In this document: piece after piece, positions 6,691-57,456 of the stretch
Numbering within the stretch: position 1 is the stretch's first letter
Layout: every line of letters starts with the position of its first letter
Origin: Octopus vulgaris
Lineage: Eukaryota
Assembly (NCBI GenBank): GCA_951406725.2
Contig: OX597827.1
Span: 47,492,001-47,556,000 of the forward strand
DNA: 64,000 nucleotides
Reading direction: 5' to 3'
Program-made: the position numbers and the translations under genes
Notes under the pieces: generated by a model
Databases searched by the model: none
Told to the model about the DNA's origin: nothing
Seen by the model: the letters and a program-made list of their open reading frames with translations, nothing else

Positions 6691-7020
6691 CCCCCAAAAG
6701 TTATTAACAGCACAAATTCTCTAATCGAATCTCCGAATTTCTGAAATGTATGTAAACAGAAAAATAGATTTAAATACACACAATAAAACATTAAATAAAC
6801 ATACATCTAGAAAACAGAGTGTCAAAAATTAACATGAAATGAAAACTTCAATGAGTATGAAAGCAGTCCCGACAACAACAGCGATCGATTCACCATGTAC
6901 CTGCGGTGCAAGTAAAAATGTAACACTAGCAATGAGTAAAAACTATGTAACAATAAAACTTTGTACAATATATTTTACAAAAGACAATGATACCTTTTGT
7001 GAAGAATTTATTCACAAGTA

Positions 7021-7191
7021 GGCGTAGGAGTGGCTGTGTGGTAAGCAGCTTGCTTACGAACCACATGGCTCCGGGTTCAGTCCCACTGCGTGGCACCTTG
7101 GGCAAGTGTCTTCTACTATATCGTGGGCTGACCAGAGCCTTAGCAGTGGATTTTAATAGACGGAAACTGAAAGAAGCCCGTCGTATATATG

Positions 7192-7222
<31 letters not shown>

Positions 7223-7427
7223 TTGTGCGTCTGTGTTTGTCCCGCCCAACATCTCTTGACAACCGATGGTGGTGTGTTTATGTTCCCGTAACTTAGTGGT
7301 TCGGCAAAAGACTCCAATAGAATAAGTACTAGGCTTACAAAGAATATGTTCTGGGGTCGATTTTCTCGACTAAAGGCGATGCTCCAGCATGGCCACAGTC
7401 AAATAATTGAAACAAGTAAAAGAGTAA
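7021..7427 (+). mobile_element. SINE family A (tRNA-like head, CORE-like segment, central (TA)n(TG)n microsatellite), full length
   Basis: ggcgtaggagtggctgtgtggtaag...gggttcagtccc (A/B-box-like), caccttgggcaagtgtcttc, central microsatellite, 3' tail aaacaagtaaaagagtaa; about 10 copies in the window. Confidence 0.92.
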
Positions 7428-10050
7428 GCAGACGATGAGAAAAGGGGATACTTCAATATGTTCCTTTTTTTTTTTAAAGAAAGAAACAGCTTTAAAAACC
7501 TGAGTTGGCCTAATATCTGACCGAGCTGCTACTCTATCAACCGCTGAATGGTATATGGAAATCCTAGAACAATATGAGGCACCATACGCCTGCTCTCATA
7601 CTTTTGCCTTCCGTAATTGGATGACTATATTACGAGGCTAGATTTATCGTAACTAACTTGGTATCTAGATTTTCGCCTTCACCAACAAAGAATTCTAAAA
7701 GTTAGTGAGTACGGAAATGATCTGCAACAAGTAGGGATGAACGCGTATTTGCATGGACAGTCAGGTTGTGATGACATTTGAAATTTACTGGGCAAGTATG
7801 ACCTATAAGATATGGCATCGGTGGAGTGGAGTGGAGAGTAATTAGGCTGTTGATAGAAAGACAGCAGAAAGATATTTGATACATGTGAGGTAGTAAGGTA
7901 GTAACAGTCGCTTGAGGCTCTTCCGTCCGGAAGTAGAAACAAGATCTCATTAACAGTAAGCTATTAGGAAAAGTATAAAAGACAGTTCGTGAGTTGAGGA
8001 TCGTAGATTTTTGGTTGTATTGATTCCACAACACAACAATTTGCGGCCCGGACGATAGCGAGTGTGGAAAGCGACGATATCAGCTCAGTCTTATTGTAAA
8101 GGTCACGTAACACCGATGATGAGGTCGGATAATGAATTGGTGAAAGGTTTTCAAATCTTGTCTAACAGACGACTTCCCCACTTACCAGAAATTGTTGGCC
8201 TTGCGTAAAAATCTTAAACCAGTATTTCTTCAAGCGATTTGAATTCTGAGAACACATTTGATCTCGCTGCCTTTGCAGAAATACATATCAGTCATACACT
8301 GGGATTCGTTTCTGTACACAATATTCCGCATCTTGAATTCAATGGCCATATACAAAATTAATTCCATCTCCCTCTATCTATTATGTTCCGGTCACACCGC
8401 GTTATGAATTACTTTTAGTATGTCCTGTTTCAATAAAATAATCGCAAGTTTTATATTGTGATAAATTCAAGCGAATGTCAGTCCTTATTTACAAAATGTT
8501 GGTATTGTTACTGAGATAAAAGCGAATAATACTAGTAAATGTCGTAAAATTGATTTCATTTCATTTCAGATAACTTTACAGGGAATTGGTAAAATCACAT
8601 AGTAACGTTCTAAATACGACGTAGGTAGATGTTGTAAAAGTTATTAGAGCAGCGACAATATCTAGTATTGTTGAAATTAATTAATTAATTTACTGGCCAA
8701 ATTTCCCTATGAAAAGTGACGAAGTCAGCCATATATATATATATAAAGAAAGATAGAGTAAGCGTTACCACGCTTGTTCTATCAAAACCATATATTTACA
8801 TACTTCTGTGTGTGTGTGTGTATGTTTGTGTGAGTGTCTGTGTTTGTATGTGTGCTTGCATTTGTGCGTTTCGTTTTGTTGGAACAAAGTAAACGAGTAT
8901 GTACTTTAAATAATATTTAATCGTCAGAAGCTGAAAGCGACTCAAGGGACGGGAGTTTCGTGTGTAACACTTATATATATATATATATATAAGATAAAAG
9001 AGAAAACAAGTAGATTGGTCGTGAAATGTGTCGACAAGACTTGTATTGTAACATTTGGAGACAGAAACAGAAAGTGCATTGATCAATTACCATCGAATGT
9101 ATGGGTAACCCATATGTTGGCCAGATAACTGCTTCAGCTTTAAGAGGACATGTGGAAAACAAGAAGGGCAGACATTTTATTTCGTTTATATTTGAGTCAC
9201 CTGCGCTAACCAAACACGATAATAGCTGGCGTAGGCGGGCGGGAAGTAGCGGAGGAGAGAAACTAGATAAGTAAGGGTGAAAGAAAGAAACGAAACACTA
9301 ATTTTGAATGCAAAGCCTATTTCCTTTCTTTTCTTTAAACTTGTGGGTCTATGTTCAACAGATGTTTATTTACATCGGAAAATGAGTAATGTAATCGGCA
9401 ATGTTATTGGAGCTCTTGGCGAATTGTGGGCCCGTAACAGTATGTTTCGAACTTGTTTATAAAAGAAAGCGGTAAAGTGTCGGACTGTATCCACAATGTA
9501 ATGTGTGCTGCAAAATTTTAATATGATGTAATATATGAAGTTATACGAAATGCGGCTGAAATTTGGTGAGATGGGTACTGTTCGTTAGGCCTGGTCATGG
9601 TTGTAATGTTACTGATGTAGGAACTGCTGTTGCGAGCGCACTTATTTGTGTCAGGTTGTGTATGGCTTGTCGCTGTGGATATTATAACAAGAAGATTAAC
9701 GAGTTTCCTATATTTCTTGAAGGCAAGGAAGAGTAGCGCATACAATATAGGGGTAGATGCGGAGTGAGGGTGTTGGACATGGAAGTTTCAAATGCATTTA
9801 TTATGAGAACTGACAGCAAGTAGGATCCGATTTAGAGAGAAATGTCGCATTCTCTCACATTCAGATTAATAATCCAAATAAATGCTGCACTGGTAACTAA
9901 GCCTGAAGAATTGAGAGAGCACCCACCAATCATAGCCGACCACATACGCCAACTTGTTATCTATTCATATCTTCGCTACAAAAACTGTTTTTGTGAATTT
10001 TTGTTGCTTTTTAATAAAGTATATACATATATAAACATATATGTATATCA

Positions 10051-10084
<34 letters not shown>

Positions 10085-10124
10085 ACACATACAAACACGC
10101 ACACACACACAGATGTTGGGGGGG

Positions 10125-10373
10125 GGGTCATCTTTACTTTGTTATCTCCCCTACTTTCCCTCTCGTGTGTGATCCTTCTGTCCGAAGTCAGTCGCCATTA
10201 TAGATCGTTAGCCATTACACACATATTTCTCTCCTTGTTTTTTCTGTGTCCCTTTCTATAGAAGAGCGTAGGCTCGAAACGTAAAAGACTTTTTCTATTC
10301 CTGAGCGTTATGCTAATACACCTATTTGATTTGTACACCACCTGTCTTCGTCTTTTGTTTTTCCGTAAACTCC

Positions 10374-10378
<5 letters not shown>
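10125..10378 (+). mobile_element. Short non-coding repeat (family H1) carrying a variant hammerhead motif, ending in (TA)n
   Basis: Homologous to 33947-34160 (-) and 57925-58198 (+); 10252-10287 reads cuuu-CUAUAGA-a-gagc-guag-gcuc-GAAA-cg-UA-aaag. Confidence 0.8.
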
Positions 10379-10404
<26 letters not shown>

Positions 10405-10529
10405 CGTTTGTAAATTTGTGTTGCAAGATTCCTTATGCGAAACCCTGTGTCGAAATATATGTAATTCGGGATAGTCATATTCCTTTTTTTTGGGGAAAAT
10501 TAACACACCTGTCCAAAAAAAGTGAACAT

Positions 10530-10968
10530 GGCGCAGGAGTGGCTATGTAGTAAGTAGCTTACTTCCTAACTACATGGTTCTAGGTTCAGTCCCACTATGT
10601 GGCAACTAGGGTAGGTATCTTCCACTAAAGCCTCGGGGTGACCAAAAATTTGTAAGGGGATCTGGTTTTCGGAAACTGGTAGAAAACCGTCGTATATCTA
10701 TGTATGTATATCCATGTGTGTGTATGTATGTATATATGTATGTATTTGCGTGTGTTTGAGTCTGCTTTTGGCCCCCCACCATGACTTGACAACCGATGTT
10801 GGGGGTGTCTACGTCCCCGTACCTTGGCGATTCGACAAAAGATTCTGATAGAGTAAGTACTAGGCTTACAAAAAATAAGTCCTTGGTTCGATTTGTTCGA
10901 CTGTAGGCGGTGCTCCACCATGGCCACAGTCAAATAACTGAAACAAATAAAAGTATAAAAGTAAAAAG
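10530..10968 (+). mobile_element. SINE family A, full length
   Basis: Colinear with 7021-7427. Confidence 0.9.
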
Positions 10969-10988
10969 AATAATTCCAAAGTAAAACA

Positions 10989-11114
<126 letters not shown>

Positions 11115-11399
11115 AACAGCTAAAAATAACAGCTGAAACTAATTAGTACATGGGTAATTATTTTATTTCGTATATTTTTCACTTGTTTATTGCTATGGTT
11201 TTGTGTTGAGTTTGATCTGAGAACATAATCTTTTGTGGTGAATGGCGATTTGACGTCTATATCTAGCATGTTGACTGTCCACTTTTCGTGTTCAGTCCTT
11301 AATTGGTATATATAAATATTTTAATCTTCGGATTCTTTTTTAATATGCTAGACCACTGGTCTTAATTGATAAATATCAATTTCTACCCTTAATTAATTT
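11115..11399 (+). mobile_element. Short repeat (family H2) embedded in (TA)n; begins with the 3' half of a hammerhead
   Basis: 11234-11399 matches the reverse complement of 34185-34350; 11118-11150 reads agcu..agcu-GAAA-cuaauuag-UA (palindromic stem III), with the 5' core lost. Confidence 0.7.
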
Positions 11400-11490
11400 T
11401 ATATATATATATATATATATGTGTGTATGTATATATATAAGTATATATATATATGTATATATAATATATATGTATATATATATATATATG

Positions 11491-11535
<45 letters not shown>

Positions 11536-11565
11536 TGTTGTACTTAGGAATTATTCTTTTTTCTT

Positions 11566-11597
<32 letters not shown>

Positions 11598-11624
11598 AAG
11601 GGGGTATGATTTTGTATAGGGGGA

Positions 11625-11820
11625 TATATATTATTCAAAGGAATTCCAACTCCCTTAATATTTGATATTCAGTATTGCATCTATTCAATAAGACAATACT
11701 TCATTTCATTTTACTATATATGCTATTTATACTATATACTCTATATTCTACATTAATATTATAAAGGATACAAATACAGCATAAAAACAGACAGAGTTGG
11801 AATTCCTTTGAACAATGTAT
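11625..11820. mobile_element. MITE-like element with ~27-bp terminal inverted repeats in TA-rich DNA
   Basis: atatattattcaaaggaattccaactc (11626-11652) versus gagttggaattcctttgaacaatgtat (11794-11820). Confidence 0.6.
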
Positions 11821-11821
11821 G

Positions 11822-11866
<45 letters not shown>

Positions 11867-12535
11867 GTATATGTATTTATATATATTATGTATATATACA
11901 ATATATATATACATATATCTATATGTATATATATTTATATATATCTGTATATGTATATATATATATATATATACACTTATAATTACACATGCATATATAT
12001 ATATATATATATATATACACTTATACTTACACACGCATATATTCATTCATGAGCTTTTCTAGATTTATAATACGTTAACTTGTAAGCACTAGCTTCTAAT
12101 TCTAACTATACTTTCTGCCTACGCATAATCTGTATAAGAGTTTCTTACTTCAACAAAATAGCATGCGTTTTACAATATACAAAAAGACAAAAATGCAAGA
12201 GAGTCTTAAAGGGTAAGATAGCATCATAGATGCAGCTGCATATATTTTCGTGCAATTGGGATCAGATATGTTTATGAAACCACTATATATTGATTTGCAC
12301 TCAGTACCAGCGCAGATGCATATTTAGACATATGAATACATACTACCATAGTTGAAGTGAATGATTTTATACTAACAATCAAACCTACCCCACATATATG
12401 TGTATGGATGTACATATGTATGGATATATCTAAATTATAGTTATGCGTCTACCTAAAGATATATGCAAACACAGATATATATATACAATTATATAAAAGT
12501 ATATATATATATATATATATATGTATAGCTATCTA

Positions 12536-12590
<55 letters not shown>

Positions 12591-12598
12591 TTCTACCC

Positions 12599-12634
<36 letters not shown>

Positions 12635-12826
12635 GTATTTGTACATATTCAGTGTGTTCACTGGTAATGCCCTATGAAAAAACTACCATTGATTTGACAT
12701 CTGTTATGATCTGAGCAATATAGGCCACATCTCATACATGCTGTGAGTAGGCACATAACCTGTATATTAAACGATGTAGGATTCACATGCACGCAAATAC
12801 AGACACTCACACACAGATGTATGTAT

Positions 12827-13065
12827 GTGTGTCTATCTGCTGGAAATAAAAGTCAAAACTCGTATTTAAATCGCCAAGATACACTGATGATAACTTCAGA
12901 AATCAACCGTCTGAATGCAAACGGTATAAGACACTCATCCAACGTACATTCAAGTATTTGCTTTAGCTCGTTTGCCCTCAGACGGTTGATTTCTGTAGTT
13001 ATCATCAGTGTATTTTGGCGATTTAAATAAGGGTTTTGACTCTTATTTCCAGCAGACAGACATAC
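12827..13065. repeat. Fold-back inverted repeat, ~97-bp arms, ~45-bp spacer
   Basis: 12827-12923 is the reverse complement of 12969-13065 with about 9 mismatches. Confidence 0.9.
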
Positions 13066-13272
13066 GTCTTATCTCCTTTGATTAATTTTAACCCTTCAGC
13101 TATCTAATGCCCGTTATGGGCCCCCAATTGCCTATATTATTGATTCTATGTTGTCATTTTAAATATTCGGTTCACTAGATAATATCAGAGTCAATGATAT
13201 CTTAGCAAATTAATTTTTTGTGAATTATTTTTCTCGTGAATTATTTGTTCCGTATTTACATACATACATATG

Positions 13273-13333
<61 letters not shown>

Positions 13334-13910
13334 TCTACTTGTTGAATCATTCATTCACAAATTCCTCCGCCGAGAACATATACTAAAATCTTAAAAAAAT
13401 ACGAAATTACAATAACTTCAATGTTATGATTATCAAAACAGAAACCGGTCGACAATATAAAAAATATACTAAAATATGTAAGCTGTGTTCATTTTCCTTC
13501 TTTTATTTTATATATATACATTTATTGCATTGCAGCTCACCACCTGGAGATGATCGAAATTCTCTTTCTCCCTTTTTTGTTTCTCCCCACTGTCTCTCTC
13601 TCTCTCTCTCTCTCTCACTATATATATATATACGTGTATACATAATGTGTGCACATCTATGTGTATATATATGTATATATATATGTATATATACATCTAT
13701 GTGTATATATATGTATATATATCACATATATATATCTCAATCTGTGGTAATTAAATTGTTGACGCTCGCATATATGCCTCTATGTTTTTTTATGTGTTTC
13801 TATGTTTGTAGAGGGTAAAAATATGGATGTTTTTCAAGCGTAAATGCTGAAGAATAATGACAACCTATTTCTTGAGACACTTATTTATCTATCTATCTGT
13901 CTATATATAA

Positions 13911-14034
<124 letters not shown>

Positions 14035-14039
14035 TAGTG

Positions 14040-14080
<41 letters not shown>

Positions 14081-14109
14081 GACTGCTGCGTGTAGCAGAA
14101 AAGTGTAAC

Positions 14110-14153
14110 CAGTACCGACGAAGAGCAATACCCAGAAACCAACTGGTCTACTG
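14110..14153 (+). ncRNA. Minimal type I hammerhead ribozyme motif (CCGACGA core variant)
   Basis: cagua-CCGACGA-agagcaauaccca-GAAA-ccaacugg-UC-uacug: 5-bp stem I, near-palindromic stem III, weak stem II. Confidence 0.65.
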
Positions 14154-14378
14154 TTTCTGTCAACGGTAGATGGGAGGTTTTCGCTCCCTAGAATGTAATA
14201 TAACGGACACGGTTTGTAGTTAACCAGCTGGAAGATATGTTCTCTTAAGGCTCACGAAGAAAAGTAACAGTGTTTTCACAAAATAACCACGTTGAGGTAG
14301 TAGCAGCCATTACTTTTCGGTAGAGTTACTACTTGCATCTCGTATTGAAAATTTTGGAACTAGCTACTTTACTTTCTC

Positions 14379-14379
<1 letters not shown>

Positions 14380-14410
<31 letters not shown>

Positions 14411-14530
14411 TGTATGTATGTATGTATGTATGTATGTATGTATGTATGTATGTATGTATGTATGCATGCATGCATGCATGTATGTATGTATGTGTGTATG
14501 CATGTGTGCTTTATACATACATACATACAT
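14380..14530. repeat. (TATG)n microsatellite
   Basis: Seen directly. Confidence 0.95.
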
Positions 14531-14560
14531 ACATACATATATGTATATATATATATATAT

Positions 14561-14869
14561 ATCACCGTGATCACCGTAACCGACCAGACTATCAGATGTT
14601 GCTGCACATCGCTGGTCACAATGCGCTTCGCATTGTTTTTAGACTTCGAAGGACGCCATCCCGCTGGCTAAGCGAGCAGGCCAACAGAAGAATGAGAGAA
14701 AGTTGTGGCGAAAGAGAACACCAAGGATCGCCCCCCCCCCACTGCCGGAGCATCGTGGAGCTTCGGGTGTTTTCGCTCAATAAACACTCACAAGGCCCGG
14801 TCTGGCAATCGAAACCACGATCCTACGACCGCGAGTCCGCTGCCCTAACCACAGGGCCAATGCACCTCC
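14561..14869 (-). mobile_element. SINE family C (tRNA-like head), tail type 1 ending in (cacggtgat)2
   Basis: Head ggaggtgcattggccctgtggttagggcagcggactcgcggtcgtaggatcgtggtttcgattgcc; homologous to 22366-22631 and, in its 5' half, to 37168-37543. Confidence 0.88.
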
Positions 14870-14881
14870 ACACATATATAT

Positions 14882-14914
<33 letters not shown>

Positions 14915-14915
14915 A

Positions 14916-14946
<31 letters not shown>

Positions 14947-16229
14947 CATATATATATACATATATATATATAATAAATATATATATACATACATACATAT
15001 ATAAGTATGTGTGTGTATGTATAGATGTGTGCCTGTGCATATGTAACCTCTTACTACGTTCATTCAGTGGGTCATAAGGCGCATAGAATATTAATGGTGT
15101 ACCAAGTGATAGGTTGATACTCTTCCCTAAAACTGGCAGCCAGAATACTTTCGTTTGTCCGTAATTGGAAATTAAGGATACTTATTATATATATTTTACG
15201 ATAAACTTTTATATTTGCAAATCCTCTCTTTAGGATGATTTGTTGATCCAAGTATATATTTATTTTCCATTAAATGCATTTTTCTTGTTTTGTGACGGTA
15301 ACAGACAGAGATAGCCCAGTGATATATCTGATAGGTATTTAATCTCTGTTTTTTTTTATACCAATTACCTGTAATATTTATGTACCAGCCTCCAGGAATG
15401 TGTTCTATATACCTAAAAGTGGTTCATCCAATAACGTTACACCGCTTATATTTAATGGTTTTTTAAAGCAATGAGTTCATAGATGGTTAATGGTTTGGAT
15501 GTGTGTTGATGAAGGAGCAAAGACGCCTTGAATATGTCATATACGTTCGTTCCCCATTTTCTATCTATCTCCTTGTTGTTTGCATAAATCTTTCGGCTCC
15601 GAAAGGCCTTAACAAACTCGGTGCTATAGAACATTTGTAGAGATAAAATTTACAAGTGATTTTTCTATACCATACATGCATAGATAATGGTATATAACTC
15701 TCATTGCACATATCTTTAAAATAACTTATTGTCGCCCATTTAGATGAATTTTCTAATTTTCCGATGTATGATACAAAATGGCGGTTAGTTTTATTTTATT
15801 TTCTATTATTTTAATCTCTAGAAGTACAGCATTCATTCCTACATTAGTCGTTCAACGGCACAGCAATTTGACAGCAATAGTTACTTTGCTTTTGACATTA
15901 ATTTACTCTGTAAGTAGGGTTCTTTTAAATGGGTTCCAATTTAACATCGCTATTACTGGCATATATGGCGTTTTGTGTAACTGATATTTCGAATAATATT
16001 ATTGTTGGTTAATTTGCGAATTTTATACTCTTTGTTGACACGCTTGTTGTAGTAGAAGATAAATTGCTCCTATGCTGATCATTTCTCAAACACATTTCCA
16101 ATAAAGATCGCCGTGCCAAAATAACGAAAGGAGATGTGATAAACCGTAATATATAAAAAAAAACGATATATTTTACGTAGACATCGTCATAAAGTATGCG
16201 CAGTGAGGACACATACAAAACAAGCAGCA

Positions 16230-16289
<60 letters not shown>

Positions 16290-16594
16290 TTACACACACA
16301 CACACACCACACACACAGACACACACATATATATATATATAAGCATACAGATAACCCATACAGTATACCTACACATGTAGATGTGTGTGTGTATGTGTAA
16401 ATATGGCTATACCTAAATATACACACATATGTATATATGCATATATATGTATATATGCCTGTATATATACATTATACACACATATCTCTATATGTGTGTG
16501 TATTATGTATGTATGTATGTATGCATGCATGCATGCATATATGTATGTATATATACATTTTTATAATTATGAGTATAATTATAATTAGTGTTCA

Positions 16595-16952
16595 GCAAAA
16601 ATTTGCTTCACCACATACCGAAATTTAGAAATAGCAGTTAAAACTAACTATTTCACTACCACAAGAAAATCTCTCAGACAGCAATACTCAACAACTCACG
16701 CAGGTAAAGAGAGAAAATAACGAATCGTCCCGGCTTTGATTAACTGTATACACGTTTCTGCGTTAGATGTGAAAAATGTAAAATCACATTTCCACTCTAT
16801 CATTCTCCTCTTCAAAGCCGGGTGGATTCGATATTTTTTCTCTTTACCTGCGTAGTAAAGTATTGCTGTCTGGGAGATTTTCTTATGGTAGTGAAATAGT
16901 TAGTTTTAACTACTATTTCTAAATTTCGGTATGTGGTGATGCAAATATTTGC
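16595..16952. repeat. Fold-back inverted repeat, ~140-bp arms, ~72-bp spacer
   Basis: 16595-16739 is the reverse complement of 16812-16952 (gcaaa..ccacataccgaaatttagaaatag.. / ..ctatttctaaatttcggtatgtgg..tttgc). Confidence 0.92.
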
Positions 16953-17412
16953 ATGTTAGATATGGATTTGCAAGATCTGTAAAAATCTGTAAAACTTACC
17001 AGTGTTGGGAAGTAGTTCATAAATCCCTATGTGAATCTGATAAACATAGACTTTAGAAGAGAGAGCGCAGATCCTGTTCAGATCTAAGGTCCCTAACTCT
17101 CTCTTGAACTCCAGGTGAGAGATCTTCAGTGGTTGCATGCATATGTATAAATATATTTTGAAGAATTTGAAAATTCTGCTTATTCCTGATTGACTTGATA
17201 TCTTTCCAGCCTTATTATTTAAGTTCTAGGGAGAATAACTACTTTATCTTTTTAGTTCATATTTTTTACATTTTAGCTTCTGTTTTTCCTTCTCCGTTCG
17301 GTGTTTTTCGTTTTCGGTTGTTTACTGTCTGGGTTTTCTTTGCGCTACCATCTCATTTTTTCCGCATTACTTCGATTATTCAATTTCTTCAGTTCGTTAT
17401 GATATGTGGTTT

Positions 17413-17463
17413 GCGCCTGAAGAATATGTTTGCCTTCTCAACATATGAAACTATTAGTAGCGC
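17413..17463 (+). ncRNA. Minimal type I hammerhead ribozyme motif, canonical core
   Basis: gcgc-CUGAAGA-auauguu(ugccuucuc)aacauau-GAAA-cuauuag-UA-gcgc: stem I 4 bp, stem II 7 bp perfect, stem III cua/uag; AATAAA about 25 nt downstream. Confidence 0.82.
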
Positions 17464-18012
17464 TTTAATACATATACTGTGACTTTTGAATAAATGATGT
17501 TTATCTCTCACCAGATGGAGTACTGTTTTTGTTGAATTTTCTCTCTCGGATCAGTTCCTACACACACACACACACCCACACACACCCACACCCACACCCA
17601 CACGTATTTGTGAATGAATCTATGTATAATATGCAATGGGATTAGTATTGGATTAAATAGCCATCTATGTATCATACTAAACGAAAATATCTCGTGAAAG
17701 TCAAATTTGCAATGATCTCCATCTCAAGTATATATATCGTATGTACGTGCTGTGGTTAAAACTCAAGATATAGATCGGAGATTTTTATCGTCGAAGCAGC
17801 GACCACCGTGGATGCCAGATGCCTTTCTGTCTCATTGAGCACTGTCAAAAGCGAGAACTCAGAGTTACCCACCCACTTGCATGAAATTTGTCATAAATAC
17901 ATAAATACACATATTGATACACACACAGACACTCATTTATACATGTATATCTATATCTATATACATATATACGTTTGTATATATGTGTATGTGTGTGTGT
18001 GTGTGTGTTTGT

Positions 18013-18190
18013 GGAGGCGCTTGGCTTAATGGTTAGGGTGTCAGCCTCATGATCGTAAGATTGGGCTTCCGATTCCTGGAATGTTGAGATGAAATGACGT
18101 CCCATCCAGCTGGGGAACATATATGCCATGGAAACCGGGAAACCGGGCCCATGAGCCTGGCTAGGCTTTAGAAGGGCGCATTTATTTTTT
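18013..18190 (+). mobile_element. SINE family D, internally deleted copy
   Basis: Head ggaggcgcttggcttaatggttagggtgtcagc...ccgattcctgg and tail ...gagcctggctaggcttta.aagggcgca match 26132-26388. Confidence 0.85.
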
Positions 18191-18857
18191 ATACACACAC
18201 ACGCACAAACACACACACACACACACATATATATGTCTCTGTGTGTGTGTGTGTGTATGTGTGAATGTGTATAGGGATATAATTGGTGCATGTGTAATTT
18301 TGGCAGGAGTATGTTTAGTAACTTTGTCAATAGCAAACCACGTTTCATGCTGCTATTTACGTACTTGGAAAGAACAATTTTTATAGGAATATTACCTAAT
18401 GAAACGACAGTTTGCTTTTCGAAGCAATATTTCTTGCTAGTCATCAACATAACCAATAAGAATGATATAAATGTCAGTTACTCACAGCGCCATCTATAGT
18501 AAAGAAAAATAATGGGAATACATCACCACACTCTATCATCCCCCTACTGGCAAACTGAATGAAATAGATGAAGATATAACTAGAATTGTCGAAAGAGTCG
18601 TACACTCGAGTGAATAATAAACAAATTATTATGGATCCAGGGTATTGAGACCTGGAAAACAACGGTTGTATTGTATTTTACCTCTCAAGAATTCTCGGAC
18701 ATGCGGGAATGTGTTCCGTTGTGACGGTAAAAACTTAAATTAGTCAGACCCTATAGATCAGAAAGCCTGTCTGTTATATTTCTGACAGAAGAAGTCTCTT
18801 GAGGGCTTTCTGACTCGAAATGCTGGAAAGGCAGAGAAAGAGAAATAGAGGGAAAAG

Positions 18858-18864
<7 letters not shown>

Positions 18865-18910
<46 letters not shown>
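18865..18910. repeat. (GA)n microsatellite
   Basis: Seen directly. Confidence 0.95.
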
Positions 18911-18912
<2 letters not shown>

Positions 18913-18989
18913 TGAAGAGTGACTGTGATAGCTGAGTAGAAGGGTGAGAGAGAAAGAGAAACATTAAGTGAGATTAGGGAAAGTTAGGT

Positions 18990-19212
18990 GGAGTTACCTT
19001 CTCGAGTCATAAGGGCCGGTGTCCCGCTTTCATGACGTACAAATTCTGGACGCCGGTCCACTGCAGGAGTACTTATTTTTGCTAGCTGGAGCAACGTGAA
19101 ATGTAGTGTTTTGCTTAATAAATAACACAACATGTCACCCGGTCCAGGAATCGAAACCACAATCTTACGATCATGAGTCCAACACCACTAACCACTAAGC
19201 CATATGTCTCCA
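18990..19212 (-). mobile_element. SINE family D, diverged copy with a different 3' end
   Basis: ccggtccaggaatcgaaaccacaatcttacgatcatgag..accactaagcca matches the reverse-strand head of 26132-26388. Confidence 0.8.
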
Positions 19213-19361
19213 TTATAGTGAGATTGCCTAGTCCTTGATCCTAGAAATGGATAATGCCAAACCCATCAATTTCTAGTAATGTTATACTATCAACATGCGC
19301 TGATGGGGAGACTGCAGGATGTTGCGGAACCTGGGTTCTCATTCCTAATGTAGTTTTTGAT

Positions 19362-19423
19362 GTTATTATTATTATTATCATTTTATTATTATTATTATTA
19401 TTGTTATTATTATTATTATTATT

Positions 19424-19465
<42 letters not shown>

Positions 19466-19478
19466 ATTATTATTATTA

Positions 19479-19541
<63 letters not shown>

Positions 19542-19558
19542 GTATTAGTATTATTATT
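19362..19558. repeat. (TTA)n/(TTG)n compound trinucleotide microsatellite
   Basis: Seen directly; it produces the poly-Leu ORF 19254-19592. Confidence 0.96.
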
Positions 19559-19776
19559 ACCCCACCATTCCGAGTTCGATTCCAGGCAGTGACTGAATCA
19601 TAATAATAATAATAATAATAACATCATCGAAAAAGATATACCTTAGGAATGAGAACTCAGATTCGCAATTTCCCCAAGACATCTGATGAAGGCTGGAGGG
19701 TGTATTAGCCGAAACGTTGTGTTAACAACAAACAAGATGAGGACAAATATTAGTCAAATGTAAATAACGTAAATAA
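19555..19776 (+). mobile_element. SINE-like element: tRNA B-box, (TAA)n, hammerhead ribozyme and (gtaaataa)2 tail; a partial inverted copy lies at about 19303-19400
   Basis: GTTCGATTCC at 19574-19583; acau-CUGAUGA-a-ggcug..uagcc-GAAA-cg-UU-gugu at 19679-19722; ttaggaatgagaac is mirrored by gttctcattcctaa at 19335-19348. Confidence 0.72.
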
Positions 19777-20110
19777 GAGAAATTATTATTGAAGATATTG
19801 TGCTGTATGAGGCATGGCACTGTCGGTTGGCATACTGGAATGTATAAAACGGAAACATCAGTATGACTATGGATTTTTTTTTTCATGGCGCCTATCACCT
19901 AACATGCTTCCAGAAGCTTTTTAATATGCCCTTTTCAATACAACGAATGCAAGCAGGGAGAATTGTGAATATGATCTGACACGACCGTGGCTTACCCGAA
20001 TTTCGCATCATGTTTTGAAACCATCAAGAAAATAAAGCATTATTCAAATACTAGGGCACGCCGAACAGATCGAATTCTTCCTCCATCTTTCAGTCTCTTA
20101 GCTCGTATTA

Positions 20111-20328
20111 GGCGGCGAGCTGGCAGAAACGTTAGCACGCCGGGCGAAATACGTAGCCGTATTTCGTCTGCCGTTACGTTCTGGGTTCAAATTCTTTGCC
20201 TTTCATCCTTTCGGGGTCGATAAATTAAGTAGCAGTTACGCACTGGGGTCGATGTAATCGACTTAATACCTATGTCTGTCCTTGTTTGTCCCCTCTGTGT
20301 TTGGCCCCTTGTGGGTAATAAAGAAATA
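20111..20328 (+). mobile_element. SINE family B (tRNA-like head, Meta-domain-like gcctttcatcctttcggggtcgataaa), near full length
   Basis: ggcggcgagctggcagaaacgttagc...gggttcaaattc; short TSD cgtattag at 20104 and 20329. Confidence 0.92.
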
Positions 20329-20608
20329 CGTATTAGCAACAATTACTATTGCTAATTTAGGACTTTCATTTAGCACAATTGTGAAAGTGTTACACAAAAT
20401 ACATCGCGGTACTTTGTTATGATGCAAAACATTATGAGTTCAAAACTAACCGATGTCAACATCGTCGTATCCCACCCGGGATAGAAAAAATCATGCATCT
20501 TTCAAGAACTGTATTGATTTTAAACTTGTAATCTCCCGACCAAACTTCTCGAATCATACACTTTTGTATCATATTTTCAATGCATATTCTCATCTTCCTT
20601 TAATATTT

Positions 20609-20830
20609 TGGCAGAAACGTTTGCTTGCCGGGCGAATTGCTTAGCGGTATTTCGTCTGTCTTTACTTTTTGAGTTCAAATTCTGCGGAGATCAACTTTGT
20701 CTTTCATCCTTTCGGAGTCGATTAAATAAGTAGCAGTTACGCACTGGGGTCGACATAATCGACTTAATCCGTTTGTCTGTCTTTGTTTGTATACTCTATG
20801 TTTAGCACCCCCTGCAGGCAATAAAAAAAG
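20609..20830 (+). mobile_element. SINE family B copy
   Basis: Colinear with 20111-20328. Confidence 0.88.
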
Positions 20831-20849
20831 AAAACCATTCTTATCTTTG

Positions 20850-21046
20850 CTTTTACTTGATTCATTCATTTGACTGAGGCCATGGTGGGGCACAACTTTG
20901 AAGAATTTTTGTCGAACGAATCGGCCCTCAGTATCATTTTTCTTTTTGGCTTGCTACTTATTCCATCGTTGTTGTTAGCCGAAACCATTACGCTACGGGG
21001 ATATGTAAACCAGCATCGATGATGAGGAACAAACATAGACACAAAG

Positions 21047-21093
<47 letters not shown>

Positions 21094-21190
21094 TGCAATA
21101 CATACAGGATGGCCATAAGTCACTTCACCCAATTCTTTATCAGTATTAGGAATGGGTAAATCGATCTTATTCATATTTATGTAGAAATTT

Positions 21191-21225
<35 letters not shown>

Positions 21226-21513
21226 TAGAAAAAAACACTTTTCATCAATTCAACAATGACAAAAATTTAATTATACCATATAGAAAAAAATTACATCATA
21301 TAGAAAATATTAAATATAAGATAAAAACATATACCAATGAGTAAGCAATATATATATATATATATACACGATGGGATTTTCAGTTTCCGCCTACAGAATC
21401 AACTTACAAAGCTTTGGACTGTCCGTGGCTACAGTAGAAAACAATTGTCCAAGGTACCGAGCAGTGGGACTGAACCAGGAAGCATGAGGTTAGGAAGCAA
21501 ACTTCTTATCGCC
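20850..21513 (-). mobile_element. SINE family A split at its central microsatellite by about 300 bp of other inserted DNA
   Basis: 3' half at 20850-21050, 5' half at 21367-21513; the insert includes tacaggatggccataagtcacttc (resembling a Tc1/mariner TIR) and an A-rich repeat also seen near 29120. Confidence 0.78.
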
Positions 21514-22266
21514 TATACGTTTACATATTCACATAATTTCCTACCAATAATTTCCTAACCATATGTGTATTAACGTATTTATATCAACATATCAACAATT
21601 GTTTCTTCGTTCGTTTGTTTTGTTCTTTTTTAATTAAAAGAAAAAACTCCGTTGCATTTATAAATATTGACTGTCTTTCTACAGCTGTAATGCTTTGTTT
21701 ATTCTCCTCTGTCATATGATTTTTTTGCAAATCCTTAATATATAGATTCGAAAATATTCCGTCGTTGTGTTTATGTCTTTGTGATATGACTAACGTCAAC
21801 GAGTAACGATTAGTTACGATGACAGAATAATCTCAGCTGGCATTAAAAAACAGGATATGTCCACTCACACGCACACACGCAGAGGCACATACAGAGATAC
21901 ACAGGGACACACACTCGCTCACTTTTATATGTGTACACGTATGTATAAATATGTGCAAGGAGATAAGGAGGAGAGAGTCAGAAAGAGAAGGAGAGACCGA
22001 GGGGAATTGCCAAGGGATTGTCCAAGAACAGATAAAATATAGAAGCGACAAAATTGAAGAATATTTCTCATTTATGTTATACACTGTCACTGTGTCCCTA
22101 CTTACACAAACACTCTCAGCCTACCACACACATATACAGACATTAACATACGTACATATGAATACATGTACATATATATATATCCTTGATCCTGAAGGCA
22201 GAAGTCTTGATATATAATTATTTTGATTCCACGGCATGATACGCTTTCTAGCTCATATTTAAACAC

Positions 22267-22631
<365 letters not shown>

Positions 22632-23166
22632 TAGGAGCATCCGTCAATATAGACAACAAAATTCTCGTAATACCGACGAGAGGCAAGAGAGGACAGATCT
22701 AGTTAAAGCCCAGGCTTTAACCACAATACAGAAATAGCATTGCTCAATTTGCGGCCAGTATACCTCCAAGGTCGTGAAAATTACAGTATTTGGGCACAAG
22801 CAAACTTTAAGTTATTTGAAATATGCTTGTGACATATTTCAAGTGTTGAAGGCAAATTCATTGCAGTTATATCATAGAGACTGTATTGTATTTCACACGA
22901 CTTTAATTAGGTCTGTCCAGAGTTACCTTACTTCGGTATTTCACACTAAAAACAGTTAAGAAGCTAGAAACATTGATATCTTGAAATCCAACAGGTGACA
23001 GTACTGGGCAGATATAGTGTTTTTACACCTATTTTTTAATCACAAGAGGGATCTTTTCTTTATGGTAACTGTAGTGAATTTGCCTTTTGCAGTTGAAGTG
23101 TCACAAGCATAACTTAATTCACCGAAATTTCGCTTGTGCCTAAACAATGCTGCTCATGTGATTATT

Positions 23167-23587
23167 TATTTCTTTATTACCCACATGAGGCTAATCATAT
23201 AGGGGACAAATAAAGACAGACAAATCGATTAAGTCGATTACATCGACCCCAGTGCGTAACTTGTACTTATTTAATCAGCCCTGAAAGGATAAAAAGCAAA
23301 GTCGACCTCGGCGGAATTTGAACTCAGAACGGGCGGCAGACGAAATACCTATTTCTTTACTACCCACAAGGGGCTAAACACGGAGGGGACGAACAAGGAC
23401 AGACAAACGGATTAAGTCGATTACATCGACCCCAGTGCGTAACTGGTACTTAATTTATCCACCCCGAAAGGATGAAAGGCAAAGTAAAGTAGACCTCGGC
23501 GGAATTTGAACTCAGAACATAACGGCAGACGAAATACGGCTAAGCATTACGCCCGGGGTCCTAACGTTTCTGCCAGCTCACCGCCCT
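23167..23587 (-). mobile_element. SINE family B dimer flanked by a 13-bp TSD
   Basis: TSD tcatgtgattatt at 23154-23166 and 23591-23603; internal junction gacgaaatacc|tatttctttac. Confidence 0.92.
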
Positions 23588-25591
23588 TGATCATGTGATT
23601 ATTGATATCTCTAAGTATTAATCATTTCAATTTCCTTTTCTTTTTCTCCCCTTTCTTTTTTTTTTTCGTTCCTCCCTCTCTTCTGATATTTTGCGCCTTC
23701 GTTATTCTCTGCTATTTTTCTTAAATTATAACACACAGAATAATAATTAGCTGTATCTCTTTTAATTAAAGCTAATACTCTATTAGTTCTGCAATAACTA
23801 ATCACTGCTCATTAATCAATATGAAGTAAGTAAATGAATAAGCGACGCTGGAATTTATTAACCATAACACTTCTTTGATGTACTAAACAATATGATACAA
23901 TAAATGTTTTTGTTTTCTTTTTGATATCAACATTGGCAACAGATTACAAAAATGTTTTAATAGGTTTAAAGGTCATTATTGGCTCCTGGTATCTCCTGGT
24001 ATGTAACCCTATTGTGCCAGCACAAGATTTTATAAGTTATTTCATTAATGATATACTTACGTTAAATATGACTCTTAAAACACCCTATAGGTTACATCCT
24101 GAATCTGTTATTCTCCCGTCGTCTTTCAGTTTCTTAAATTTTGGCAATTTAGATTCGAAATGTCACTTGCTGATGAACTGTTCTTTAATAAGTATATCAT
24201 AGGTAGTTTGTATATTTGGTAAGACTGCATCGTTGGGAGTTGCGTAACATATATATATTTATAGATGGCGCGCATACTGCATACTTAATTGTACCGTGAT
24301 TAAATAACTATAAAAACTCTTAACGAAGCAACTGTAGCAGTACCACATAATGCATTTGTCTGTTTTTATTATACTTACACACACATACACACACAGACAC
24401 ATACACACACACATGCATTTATATTTATATATATACGTACATACGTATGTATACATAGATACACACACACATATATGGACAAATATTCAGCAATTATATA
24501 GAAAATTTTCAGGCAAATAGTGAAATCAGCCAGATTTAGATATACAATATACCCAATGTTATATAAATGTATCTAGTAGTAATAGGAGACAATTCAATAT
24601 AATGTAAGGCTATCTTTTGAAATACATACAATTTCAATATAACCAATTTCTGTCTTTAATTTGAAATGTCACTTTTATTAGCTTTGCATACATACAAACA
24701 TACATACATACATATATATACATACATACATACACATGTACGCACGTACATGCTAAAATATATATATGCAAACACACACACTTATTGTTTCTCATATACA
24801 TGCATATACATGTGTATATACATATATTTATGTATGTGTGTGTGAGGGTACGTGTGTGACTGACTTCAGATATTGAGTTCTGTCTTACTTTGATCGTCGT
24901 TTAATCGAGTATGCAATATCGAATTCACGCTGCCACCAATGCCTGTATGTGTGTGTGTGTGTGTGTGTCTGTCTGTCTTTGTGTGTGAGTTTACAGAATT
25001 TTTCTGTATTATTCTCGATAGAAATACGATACCATTAATAGAAATTTTATAAAATTTTCCATTAAACTGTCAGATTAATATCTTACATTTGGTTAGGTAA
25101 GTGTTGATACGTTTTCTGCCCACTGGTCCTCATCGAATGTAATTTTTAGAAAGTCTTCCCAATTGATCATAACATTATAAGCGACATGTTTGCATAGCCG
25201 TTGCGCCAGAAGTGCAAAGACCATTCTAGTCAACTAAACATGTCATCTTTTTAAGGGTCGAGAAATTTAAGTTCCCGCCTAGAGCTGTGCATTGATTCTA
25301 GCTGTTGCCATTATGAACGCTTCTATGGTGGTATAAAATATATTTTCAACTAGATATTGATTAACTCTTGAGTAAACCTGAGCACGGGTATTATAGAAAT
25401 AGATTAAAACCTTCATCATAAAATCCAGATTAACGTTATGCTGGATACATGTGTATTCTCAAGTATTTAAAACGGTTAAGCTTCATTTGAATGTTATTAG
25501 GTCGGATAAGCTATTGAATAGCTGCCTTCACATAAGACTTGACGAGGTGCAATTAATATCGCTACTGCATTATTTTCTAATAACTCTATTT

Positions 25592-28517: not shown

Positions 28518-28565
28518 GTCTCTGATGAAGGGATATTCCTAATATCACAGAAACAGCTGTAAGAC
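28518..28565 (+). ncRNA. Minimal type I hammerhead ribozyme motif, canonical core
   Basis: gucu-CUGAUGA-agg-gauauu(ccu)aauauc-aca-GAAA-cagcug-UA-agac: stem I gucu/agac, palindromic stem III cagcug; lies in a ~160-bp island between (TA)n and (CA)n. Confidence 0.8.
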
Positions 28566-28685
28566 TTACTTTCTCTCTATAAATGTCCAGGAAATTCCAC
28601 ACGATCTTGGCTTATTTGTCTCATTTTATTTAACACACATACACACACACACATTATGTATAAGATCTAGATTTCCTCTCTGAAG

Positions 28686-40275: not shown

Positions 40276-40865
40276 CGTATATATACAGAGAACATCATGA
40301 GAATATTTTTGTTTGCTTATATTTTATTATGTGTGGCTATAACATTATGTCAGTTTCAGTGACTCTTTGCACGCTACCTGAGAAAATAGTCTTGCGTCAT
40401 AACATTGCGAGCAACTTTTAATAAACTACATCTGAGCCGAAGTCCGTCGAATTCACAGCACCTCATCTTCTCTTGTACAGTTCGTGAGTGTCACGATGTA
40501 ACAGAACCGTCAGTGGAAAGTATTTGAATCAAGTATTTCGGTATGGAAACAATTGTATCATATGGAGCGGCACAATGAGACTGAAGCAGCCAATGTATTG
40601 AGGTTTAGCTTCCTGATTTGCATAGCAGTCTTCCAGCTTCACAAAACATCGGTTTGAAATTTTGTCATAAGGCGAGTATTTCTGAGGAGTGCAAACTGAT
40701 TACATCGAACCCAATCCTGAACTGATAGACAGCAAAAGCATGAAAAGCATAAGTCGGCTTTGGTGAAATTTGAACTAATGCCCGACCAAATACCGCTAAG
40801 CTTTTTGCCCGATGTGCTAACAGTTCAGCCATGTCGCCTCCTTACGAAATACCAGGGCTGTCAGA

Positions 40866-40991
40866 AGCTTACTTACCAACCACATGGTTCTGGGTTCAGT
40901 CCCACTGCGCGGCACATTGGGCAAGTGTTTTCTACTATAGACCAAATCCTTGCAAGTGGACTTGGTAGACGGAAACTGAAAGAAGCCCGGC

Positions 40992-41041
<50 letters not shown>

Positions 41042-41268
41042 ATGTGTGTGTGTATGTTTGTGTGGCTATGTTTGTACCCTCAGCATCGCTTGACAACCGA
41101 TGCTGGTGTGTTTACGTCCCCGTCACTTAGCGGTTCGGCAAAAGAGACCGATAGAATAAGTACTAGGTTTACAAAGAATAAGTCCTGGGGTCGATTTGCG
41201 CAACTAAAGACGATGCTCCAGCATGGCCGCAGTCAAATGACTGAAACAAGTAAAAGAGTGAAGAGTAA
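40866..41268 (+). mobile_element. SINE family A, 5'-truncated
   Basis: Colinear with 7048-7427. Confidence 0.9.
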
Positions 41269-41335
41269 ATGACATAGGTTTCAGCATGTATTTGTTGTAG
41301 TAAGGTGAGCGAAATGACAAAGCATATATTTTAAG

Positions 41336-41841
41336 GCAAAGTACACATGAAAACCCACAGACATGAACTAGCTAAGCAGGCACTGCAGCAGAATAAGACG
41401 CTTCAACCCCACAAAGTAGAAAACCATGCGATTGAAAATGCCGAACCTGAGGACAAGACTGATAATACATTAGTGACAAGTCAACCAGATGACAGTTCTA
41501 TAACTGTTACACAACCAGCAACATTGACCACTGCTGCGACACTTCAGAATGGAACTGTCAGCTCTAGCCTTAGAGATATTAACCAAAACGATCTGACTGC
41601 AACTAATGCAACTGTTTTGTCTCAAACAACTATTTCAGAAGCCTTATTAGAACAGGTATTTAACGTGCAACAGAATCTATTAGGAAACCAGCAAAATTTA
41701 TCTTTTAACCAAAGATCAATTACGTTACCCAGCTCGCAACAGTTAACAAATGTAATAGACGTAAGTCCTTTAAACACATCCTTTGCACCTACTTTGCCGA
41801 CCACTTCTCTAAAAAGCATACTCTACAAACCCACAGTATGA
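41336..41841 (+). CDS. Orphan coding-like segment: possible terminal exon or pseudogene fragment of a C2H2 zinc-finger-type protein (ZnF end plus T/S/Q/N-rich disordered tail)
   Basis: Only long ORF (164 aa from ATG 41347) not derived from a microsatellite or TE; begins KVHMKTH, like a C2H2 finger end (HxxxH); candidate acceptor tattttaag| at 41335; no partner exon recognised. Confidence 0.5.
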
Positions 41842-42483: not shown

Positions 42484-43343
42484 ATTCTACACCGCTTTCC
42501 TGTCCATACCACTCTCTTTTTCTGAGTCTGTCTATTTATATGTATGCATAAGTGTCTGTGTAAATGCGTATATGTGTGTGTGTATGCATGTGTGTATGCA
42601 TGCATGAATGTATGTATGTATGTATGTATGTATATAAGTATATATACATATATATATATATACACATATGAACATTTTTATTTATAAATGATGGTGCATA
42701 CGGCAAACTTTCACACAATTTCAGTCTAACAATCTCCTTCCCAATGCACTGGTTGGCTAGGAGCCACATAAAAGGAGGACATTTGGCAACGTTGCATCGC
42801 AATGGGATTGAACCCATATCATCACACAACCACATGATACACAGACGATGGCCTATCTAATTGCTACCTTTAAACATACTTAAGCCAATTTGGGTTGCTC
42901 TCAATATAATTAATTCCCTCGTGTAAATAGGCTCATTTTATTCAGCGTTCATAGAAACCTACTCTCATTTAAACCTCTTCATAGTTTCCTATCAAAAATT
43001 TAATCTATTTTCTCATTCTTCTTTCGCACACACTCTCTCTTATTAATTCATTCATTTATTCTTTCTTTCTTTTTTTTTTTACTTATCTCTTTATCCCCCT
43101 CTTCGTGTTCAGCAAGTCGAGACTAATATTATGTATGCAATATTTTCCCGAATATGTAATAAATTCCTCATTTCAAATTGATAACTCTAAAGATATATGT
43201 ACCGAAACAGTATTCCTGAATACTTACATCTTCATCCATTCTGTTATTCTTGTATTCTAATACTTTTTCCAGCCATTGGAATGCTGCCATTGGGAAAATC
43301 TTGAATGGTTCAGTTGAACAAATCGCCACCGGTACCATATATA

Positions 43344-43573
43344 GGCGGCAAGCTGGCAGAAACGTTAGTACACCGAGTGAAATGCGTAGCCGTATTTCGT
43401 CTGCCGTTACGTTCTGAGTTCAAATTCCGCCGAGGTCGACTTTGGCTTTCATCCTTTCGGGGTCGATTATATAAGTACCAGGTACGCACTGGGGTCGATG
43501 TAATCGACTTAATCCGTGTGTCTGTCCTTGTTTGTCCCCTCTGTGTTTAGCCCCTTGTGGGTAGTAAAGAAAT
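43344..43573 (+). mobile_element. SINE family B, full length
   Basis: ggcggcaagctggcagaaacg...gtagtaaagaaata; imperfect TSD ggtac(c/t)atata. Confidence 0.93.
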
Positions 43574-43749
43574 AGGTACTATATATTTTTGAAGTTTTGT
43601 ACTTATTGTGTCATTCCCATTTACAATTCGTGATGTGACATGTTGTACACAAACGCACATAGTTTGTGAAGCAGTGAAGAAACAGACACAAAAACAGGTA
43701 CACAGGTACACACAGATACACACCCCATATATATATATATATATATACC

Positions 43750-47640: not shown

Positions 47641-47990
47641 TATTTATTTCTTTACTGCCTACAAGGGGCTAAACACAGAGGGGGCAAACAAGGACAGACA
47701 CACGGATTAAGTCGATTACATCGACTCCAGTGCGCAACTGGTACTTAGTTTATCGACCCCGAAAGGATGAAAGGCAAAGTCGACCTCGGCGGAATTTGAA
47801 CTCAGGACGTAACGGCAGACGAAATACCGCTAGACATTTCGCCCGGCGTGCTAACATTTCTGCCAGCAATACCGCTAGACATTTCGTCCGGCGTGCTAAC
47901 GTTTCTGCCAGCAATACCGCTAGACATTTCGCCCGGCGTGCTAACATTTCTGCCTGCTCGCCGCCTTAGTTATGCCAGCTCCTCGCTGCC
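47641..47990 (-). mobile_element. SINE family B with its 45-bp head segment triplicated; 11-bp TSD
   Basis: aataccgctagacatttcg.ccggcgtgctaac.tttctgcc.gc x3 at 47823-47957; TSD gtttgttatct at 47630-47640 and 47991-48001. Confidence 0.9.
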
Positions 47991-56967: not shown

Positions 56968-57406
56968 TCTTTCTTTACTCTCTTTACTCTCTTACATGTT
57001 TCAGTCATTTGACTGTGACCATGCTGGAGCACCGCCTTTAGTCGAGCAAATCGACCCCTGGACTTATTCTTTGTAAGCCCAGTACTTATTCTATCGGTCT
57101 CTTTTGCCGAACCGCTAAGTGACGGAGACGTAAACACACCAGCATCGGTTGCCAAGCAATGCTAGGGGGACAAACACAGACACACAAACATATACACACA
57201 CACTTATATATATATACATATATACGACAGGCTTCTTTCAGTTTCCGTCTACCAAATCCACTCACAAGGCTTTGGTCGGCCCGGGGCTATAGCAGAAGAC
57301 ACTTGCCGAACCACTAGGTTACGGGGACGTAAACACACCAGCATCAGTTATCAAGCGATGTTGGGGGCACAAACACAGACACACAAATATATACATACAT
57401 ACATAC

Positions 57407-57456
<50 letters not shown>

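Follow-up and report, generated by a model that had tools for sequence, protein, structure and literature searches.

A SINE-like octopus repeat with a tRNA-derived head and a hammerhead is probably the end repeat of an abundant Penelope-type retrotransposon

A short repeat of Octopus vulgaris, in which a Pol III B box is followed by a hammerhead, had been predicted to be a separate SINE that captured the terminal repeat of a Penelope element. We find that the copy is probably a worn pLTR (end repeat) copy of an abundant protein-coding Penelope-type retrotransposon (PLE), which itself carries the tRNA-derived head, rather than a separate SINE. On balance, the best reading of the family is that its many short members are solo pLTRs, copied from RNA that starts at the captured tRNA head of the Penelope element.

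RESULTS

The copy in the window

The window is a stretch of 64,000 nt (C14:47492001-47556000 of the 2.8-Gb genome), and the copy in it consists of two arms of opposite orientation (Table 1). The plus arm holds the B box GAGTTCGATTCC at 19572-19583, read from the sequence, and a (TAA)n spacer at about 19600-19622, both as originally predicted. The A box is gone from the window copy through 5' truncation, which had also been proposed, and a full tRNA-like head with A and B boxes is present in most copies, 5' of the portion kept in the window. The plus arm is closed at 19760-19776 by GTAAATAA-C-GTAAATAA; thus the (gtaaataa)2 ending of the original prediction exists, but what had been taken for a tandem tail is one of two PLE end points and is not of LINE type. 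The end point used here is the shorter one, without the tail of 25-35 nt. The inverted partial copy across the tract was likewise rightly seen, although its supposed reach to 19303 was not borne out; the family match inside this minus arm covers 19327-19370 at 91%. The tract at the junction is the expanded (AAT)n tract of the minus arm and overlaps the aligned part of that arm. Because the minus arm breaks off before the hammerhead and carries neither hammerhead nor tail, its outer end is lost together with any target duplication, and none was found near the ends of the copy.

Table 1. Parts of the copy in the window
Feature	Position	Strand	Basis
Inverted partial arm: (AAT)n tract and start of the pLTR coding part	19322..19382	-	blastn 81%, E 6e-11
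(TTA)n/(TTG)n tract, where the two arms join	19363..19559	.	Tandem Repeats Finder, 66 copies, period 3
tRNA-Arg-like head, 3' half (from about +38)	19559..19599	+	B box
(AAT)n spacer and short leader, from head to start codon	19600..19648	+	Sequence and alignment
First 43 codons of the PLE ORF	19649..19776	+	Translation; two in-frame stops in the window copy
Minimal type I hammerhead of the PLE kind, within the coding stretch	19678..19723	+	Sequence; predicted cut after U19718

Several other repeats lie in the window. A second, unrelated minimal hammerhead of the PLE type is located at 28522-28566 (+), with 1,473 first-look candidates in the genome; its family has a long pyrimidine-rich upstream region, scattered 5' limits and some inverted arms, and in 30 loci no ORF lay within 1.5 kb. 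A different short interspersed repeat, in many cases arranged as partial tandem dimers, occupies 1-509, 20109-20339, 20609-20833, 23167-23585, 43342-43581, 47641-47966, 52036-52277, 60120-60356 and 62475-62685, and members of a second repeat class, which contain internal (TA)n/(CA)n, lie at 7002-7427, 10530-10967, 40860-41269 and 56984-57620 as well as elsewhere. The stretch 41335-41838 (+) holds 168 Thr/Ser/Gln-rich open codons without repeat character and is possibly a host gene exon.

Family size and the hammerhead

A genome search with the window query gave 4,553 first-look candidates, and the best-scoring full-length copies were 85-90% identical over the entire head-to-tail stretch (40 scored, mostly full length). 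An exact 33-nt hammerhead pattern matched 2,819 times and an exact head pattern 5,037 times, compared with no matches for either reversed control. Hence the canonical hammerhead with its 5-bp stem II and ACGU palindrome, which the original prediction had described, is not a chance occurrence. Pattern counts divided by the observed match rates put the family at ∼10,000-25,000 units in the genome; the head was counted by exact patterns, and a head-only DNA search gave no candidates, probably as common words were skipped. Most of the sampled units come from the first 135 Mb of contig C1.

After CUGAUGA (19683-19689), the window sequence continues with one unpaired A and then with stem II (GGCUG/UAGCC) and the palindromic ACGU; CG and UU come after GAAA (19711-19714), up to the predicted cut. 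Stem I pairs G19678-U19682 with G19719-U19723 in five pairs, two of them G-U. These features match the minimal PLE hammerhead described in PMC4209133. An Rfam scan gave no hammerhead or tRNA model match at E<=10 over the window region, nor in five copies, and the monomer folds no better than shuffled sequences (z -0.59), as would be anticipated when a hammerhead lacks a helix III of its own. The same form of hammerhead is present downstream of the ORF of a distant relative (L355). No pile-up of reads at the ribozyme cut was seen in RNA-seq, and the same absence is reported for anole PAc (PMC11167929). Self-cleavage, as a dimer or aided by protein, is predicted from the presence of the motif.

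The tRNA-derived head

The full head that the window copy has lost is joined to the same hammerhead tail in 24 of 30 loci selected by the head pattern, and in most of the remaining six the (AAT)n tract is the site of an interruption. This tract of the pLTR is often expanded or broken by later repeat insertions (L107, L114, L117, L139 and L154); such interruptions split the head from the tail and create false 5' ends at +75. The closest host tRNA is tRNA-Arg(TCG) (L269; a small sample of 30 tRNA loci of six isotypes), with which the head scores 16 against a maximum of 14 in 1000 shuffles. The octopus SINEs OR1 and OR2 are linked to tRNA-Arg. ARAGORN found no tRNA in the window nor in 29 copies, and the head has no intact cloverleaf; its A and B boxes are kept only slightly better than the remaining head and no better than the tail. 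A near-perfect hairpin at -14..+10 lies across the first bases of the head in the ORF-linked form. Elsewhere in the genome, seven tRNA-Cys-like genes are clustered within 3 kb (L260).

Twenty lower-ranked ORF loci yielded no head-less sister family. Three almost identical loci, divergent at the stop codon, were considered as such a sister and set aside, as they resemble one truncated piece within a larger repeat. A repeated block in L236, L237 and L241 (contigs C31 and C7) contains a piece of a Poseidon ORF cut near the stop, with another hammerhead motif ∼400 nt beyond the ORF piece on the opposite strand. A metagenome scan gave nine loci, all distant, and the A-plus-B-box pattern was present in none of them, which says little about the timing of head gain.

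The head and tail belong to a coding element

Several of the hammerhead-pattern loci have the end of an RT+GIY-YIG frame just 5' of the head, and a search with that protein gave 7,400 candidates. The head directly follows the ORF in 23 of 30 ORF-selected loci, and in 23 of the 24 where the ORF match reaches the stop region; thus the PLE itself carries the head, and the proposal of a separate SINE is not supported. On the other side of the repeat, the pLTR reads straight into the ORF in 7 of 30 loci selected by the N-terminus, two of them starting at the head. Two single loci cover most of this order at 89% identity, of which L395 begins at -2, crosses the entire ORF and enters the next head, and L399 extends from +75 as far as the next end point; repeat, ORF and repeat stand together in these two of the seven loci that were extended, the other five being broken off or rearranged. 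The unit of 2.63 kb consists of the head with A and B boxes, (AAT)n, ATG, hammerhead, two end points, the remainder of the RT+GIY-YIG frame, stop codon, ∼30 nt and the next head. The majority frame of the copies has 833 codons, with the ATG at +103 and its end 29 nt before the next head. Moreover, pLTRs from partial tandems hold the start of the ORF and the minimal hammerhead.

The translation of 19649-19776 matches the N-terminus of an 847-aa homolog (P0003; 52% over 33 residues, E 1e-5, 120 proteins), and the peptide encoded by the hammerhead is clear in only 1 of 23 full-length homologs. A PLE terminal repeat matching 19620-19776, which the original prediction had expected, was found adjoining an RT+GIY-YIG ORF, but its capture by a SINE is not supported: the tail encodes the N-terminus of the PLE protein, and short and ORF-linked copies have their variants in common. 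The Penelope partner that had been postulated exists as well, not as a separate partner but as the same element.

A natural 569-aa open stretch of the family (L235) has 2,989 homologs, the listed ones with PF00078, PF26215 and/or PF28514 and some with PF01541. L235 itself has a weak RVT_1 match (E 3e-6), just under the cut-off; a GIY-YIG-type motif lies near the C-terminus of the family protein, in which no PF01541 profile match was found, and a PDB search gave RT matches only, which were weak. The CX2-5CxxC linker motif is absent from L235 and present in the host Neptune ORF L061; this zinc-finger linker between RT and EN is described from Neptune and Nematis (PMC8557442). We provisionally place the element in Penelope/Poseidon by domain order and motifs. 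The Neptune families, the only ones to emerge from the GIY-YIG family search, were considered as a partner and rejected, with other hammerheads and no match to the element. One of them is a young family (L061:1745-4087 and many other loci) with many intact 781-aa frames, a U3-A8 core variant of the hammerhead in its pLTR and an ORF-like stretch of ∼350 aa upstream of the RT frame.

Insertion footprint

The 3' ends of 233 units fall into two groups ∼25-35 nt apart, with 110 short, 102 tailed and 21 other ends. Among 91 head-to-head pairings, 76 joined one tailed and one short arm, 4 two short and 1 two tailed arms, and 10 were unclassified, so that 76 of 81 classifiable pairs were mixed (p 2e-17 against even odds). 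Direct repeats of at least 10 bp (10-16 bp, at most one mismatch) flanked 47 of 76 pairs, compared with 3.5% of 456 mismatched controls. This layout of head-to-head arms, an extra tail on one of them and target duplications of 10-16 bp is the Penelope footprint. It fits the two internal RT start sites described for anole Poseidon (PMC11167929), and the same insertion layout is described for Adineta Pen2a (PMC3846280).

Copies occur solo or head-to-head, with few direct partial repeats, and the short unit forms no tandem arrays. These facts bear on the reading of the repeat as an ordinary LINE-dependent SINE or a tandem retrozyme that carries a hammerhead by chance. The combination of a tRNA head with a hammerhead is known from schistosome Sm-alpha/Sj-alpha (PMC2770079, PMC6765202), but here the coding start of the PLE itself makes up the 3' part, insertions have head-to-head arms and obey the PLE tail rule, and the unit is not arrayed. 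Such a reading is largely refuted by the ORF linkage on both sides, and we regard it as extremely improbable.

5' ends and the role of the head

Of 91 units selected by the hammerhead, 54 extend at least into the first 20 nt of the head: 42 have their limit at -20..+20 (31 of them at -8..+8), the other 12 continue, and many head-stopping units are solo copies joined to unrelated flank. A k-mer 30 nt upstream of the head matched 781 times compared with the 5,037 matches within the head, the match rates being similar (16/39 and 18/41). In insertions with one arm running 30 nt or more beyond the head, 5 of 18 partner arms (two of the five ambiguous) end at the head, compared with 42 of 54 above (Fisher p 3e-4); these 18 partner arms were checked by hand, and the automatic counts (4/22 and 4/27) included short fold-back pieces. 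This partner-arm control indicates that the two arms share a template type, and that most short copies come from RNA beginning at the head.

The hairpin at the start of the head could by itself stop or fold back cDNA, and some stopping at the palindrome remains among the short copies. It is thus conceivable, though unlikely, that the head is a passive SINE fragment in a non-coding stretch of the PLE, that transcription is by Pol II or read-through, and that ends pile up at the head by fold-back or stalling at the palindrome. Many junctions are centred on the near-perfect hairpin of the ORF-linked form, the 5' ends of Adineta pLTRs are also palindromic (PMC3846280), the promoter of D. virilis Penelope is described as LINE-like, TATA-less and internal (PMC2377424), and RNA-seq shows no discrete ends. 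However, 13 of 18 long-template arms go beyond the palindrome, and 17 solo units that extend past the start of the hammerhead end at -8..+8 without any adjacent inverted arm. Moreover, the ends fall where a tRNA-type promoter would start, and the second, head-less hammerhead family has scattered 5' limits (30 loci, a rough measure). As a point against RNA starts at the head, part of the boundary may be due to the palindrome alone, and long-template arms still stop there above background.

Short copies and their possible masters

Short units outnumber ORF-linked units by ∼6:1. They retain head, hammerhead and end points, and pLTR sequences are described to have moved a host gene in trans in Adineta (PMC3846280); these observations would suit a true SINE, of which Pol III-transcribed solo copies are recopied in trans by the PLE protein while the ORF-linked form is a recombinant or the ancestor. 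A comparison of 118 short with 94 ORF-linked units, a sample of the family, revealed no diagnostic site and no private variants of the short form, which argues against this reading; polymorphic positions were shared and had similar frequencies in both classes. The two classes differed in CpG decay, in small deletions among the long units, and at position -8, the point of entry of fold-back sequence. Outside CpG sites, both diverged from the majority by ∼5%; the slightly lower value of the short copies (4.8% versus 5.6%, p 0.02) would favour a SINE, although these copies had been picked by exact patterns.

Two further points stand against a SINE. A template extending at least to the tailed end is required for 76 of 81 pairs, so that copies with the short end cannot act as masters. 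For anole Poseidon, a need for RNA that continues beyond the initiation sites (first 172 nt of the ORF) is described (PMC11167929), and solo copies lack this extension. Furthermore, the tail is PLE coding sequence, and the entire short unit, head included, belongs to the PLE, its 3' half being the PLE coding start. We thus consider a true SINE quite improbable and prefer solo pLTRs made from few masters over a self-propagating SINE, since the template must pass the start sites and solo copies do not.

Transcription

Textbook A and B boxes are located at the 5' end of the pLTR, where 5' ends of copies fall at -8..+8, and the promoters of Penelope (PMC2377424) and Chlamys (PMC8557442) are described to sit at this end of the pLTR. 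The tRNA-derived head with its Pol III boxes likely marks the RNA start of the element. In three RNA-seq runs of one study on organism B (∼6% of each run sampled), the two directions had equal depth, 87-89% of the reads ran on into unlike sequence, coverage of the ORF was thin, and no discrete start or end shared by many molecules was found. Equal strands, run-on reads and the lack of discrete ends fit read-through of embedded copies. Loose ends in the RNA reads of organism B show the spacer that precedes the head. RNA contigs of organisms B, C, D and E cover the end of the ORF, the head and the hammerhead; none of the contigs listed bridged the junction of ORF and head with 31 letters on each side, and no RNA records were found among the listed holders of the element.

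The sense strand of 2,634 nt contains one T4 and no T5, compared with 4-9 T4 in each of three Neptune ORF sets (1.7-2.3 kb). We considered this depletion of T-runs as a sign of Pol III read-through and dropped it, because the scarcity did not reach significance in a comparison with synonymous shuffles (p 0.165), and the nearest full-length homolog is likewise low in Phe.

That Pol III makes the short RNA is about evenly balanced, and that it makes the full-length RNA is rather doubtful. Under Pol III, the protein would need to be made from uncapped RNA or from another promoter. It is accordingly a tentative idea that the autonomous element is a Pol III gene, in which a captured tRNA promoter in the pLTR would yield a 2.6-kb, nearly terminator-free coding RNA that is translated without a cap, and the same RNA would give rise to thousands of SINE-like solo repeats; we think this less likely to be true than false.

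DISCUSSION

How the short copies may arise

The reading that we favour, solo pLTRs copied from head-started RNA, would work as follows. By analogy with in vitro work on anole Poseidon, the protein would cut the two target strands 10-16 bp apart and prime two cDNAs at two internal start sites. On a head-initiated RNA, priming close to the 5' end would let both cDNAs run off at the head and give solo SINE-like repeats of 230-260 bp; the RT start sites would lie ∼120-155 nt into the ORF, as we infer from PMC11167929, and priming in the first repeat would then yield exactly the short unit. Priming at the sites of the downstream repeat would instead produce ORF-containing copies. The palindrome across the first bases of the head would help to join the two cDNA ends, and short copies would be the products of few masters with no separate lineage. 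The strict pairing of tailed and short arms within one target duplication, together with the coupling of the arms in template length, fits two internal priming sites on one RNA, and this model is testable in the existing in vitro system.

Relation to known elements

Anole Poseidon PAc, Adineta Pen2a and D. virilis Penelope (PMC11167929, PMC3846280, PMC2377424) are described, like the element here, with a single ORF of ∼830-840 aa that encodes RT with GIY-YIG at the C-terminus. These EN+ PLEs further share a pLTR with the ORF start and a minimal hammerhead, partial tandems, inverted 5' arms, an optional tail of ∼30 nt, short target duplications (9-10 bp in Adineta) and a palindrome at the pLTR 5' end. 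They differ in the 5' part of the pLTR, which is a tRNA-derived head with A and B boxes here, whereas TATA/Inr-like motifs are described in Adineta (PMC3846280) and a LINE-like TATA-less promoter in Penelope (PMC2377424). Moreover, solo pLTRs that start at the head dominate the family here, unlike in PAc, Pen2a and Penelope as described.

The TRIMp3 elements Cassandra, Helenus and Ajax resemble the octopus element in having a small-RNA-derived Pol III promoter, probably from a SINE, in the terminal repeat (PMC10886601). These are short non-coding LTR elements, whereas here the coding PLE's own repeat carries the head, and their autonomous partners are argued to require Pol II (PMC10886601). 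Sm-alpha/Sj-alpha of schistosomes also combine a tRNA-related Pol III unit with a hammerhead, but they are non-coding, often tandem and processed by the ribozyme, with no coding partner named in the passages on them in PMC2770079 and PMC6765202; the hammerhead here, a minimal one as in PLEs, is contained in an ORF. Non-LTR retrozymes (bioRxiv 10.64898/2026.07.22.740005) and non-autonomous Chlamys such as MRC1 (PMC8557442) are similarly short, related to pLTRs and thought to be moved by PLE enzymes, but they are tandem, and no tRNA head is reported for them, the word 'tRNA' having no occurrence in the preprint. The octopus SINEs OK, OR1 and OR2 (Ohshima and Okada 1994), probably from the same host group, also have tRNA-derived heads. 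An octopus repeat annotation (PMC13282606) lists Penelope-like families and 893 unclassified SINE families and does not mention hammerheads in its main text; a repeat library entry may already contain the family. In the literature searched, largely open-access main texts, we found neither a PLE with a tRNA-derived pLTR nor a PLE-mobilised SINE.

Implications

Descriptions of terminal repeats with a Pol III head concern short non-coding LTR elements, and the case of a coding retroelement was not found in the literature searched. Few PLEs have known promoters or transcript starts; should the head function as a promoter, Pol III would be the source of a long coding RNA. Whether or not the head works as a promoter, the family offers extensive natural data on PLE insertion, and thousands of 'SINE' calls in genomes of this kind can be solo pLTRs. 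If the reading of the autonomous element as a Pol III gene were true, the family would be a snapshot of a SINE born from a Penelope element.
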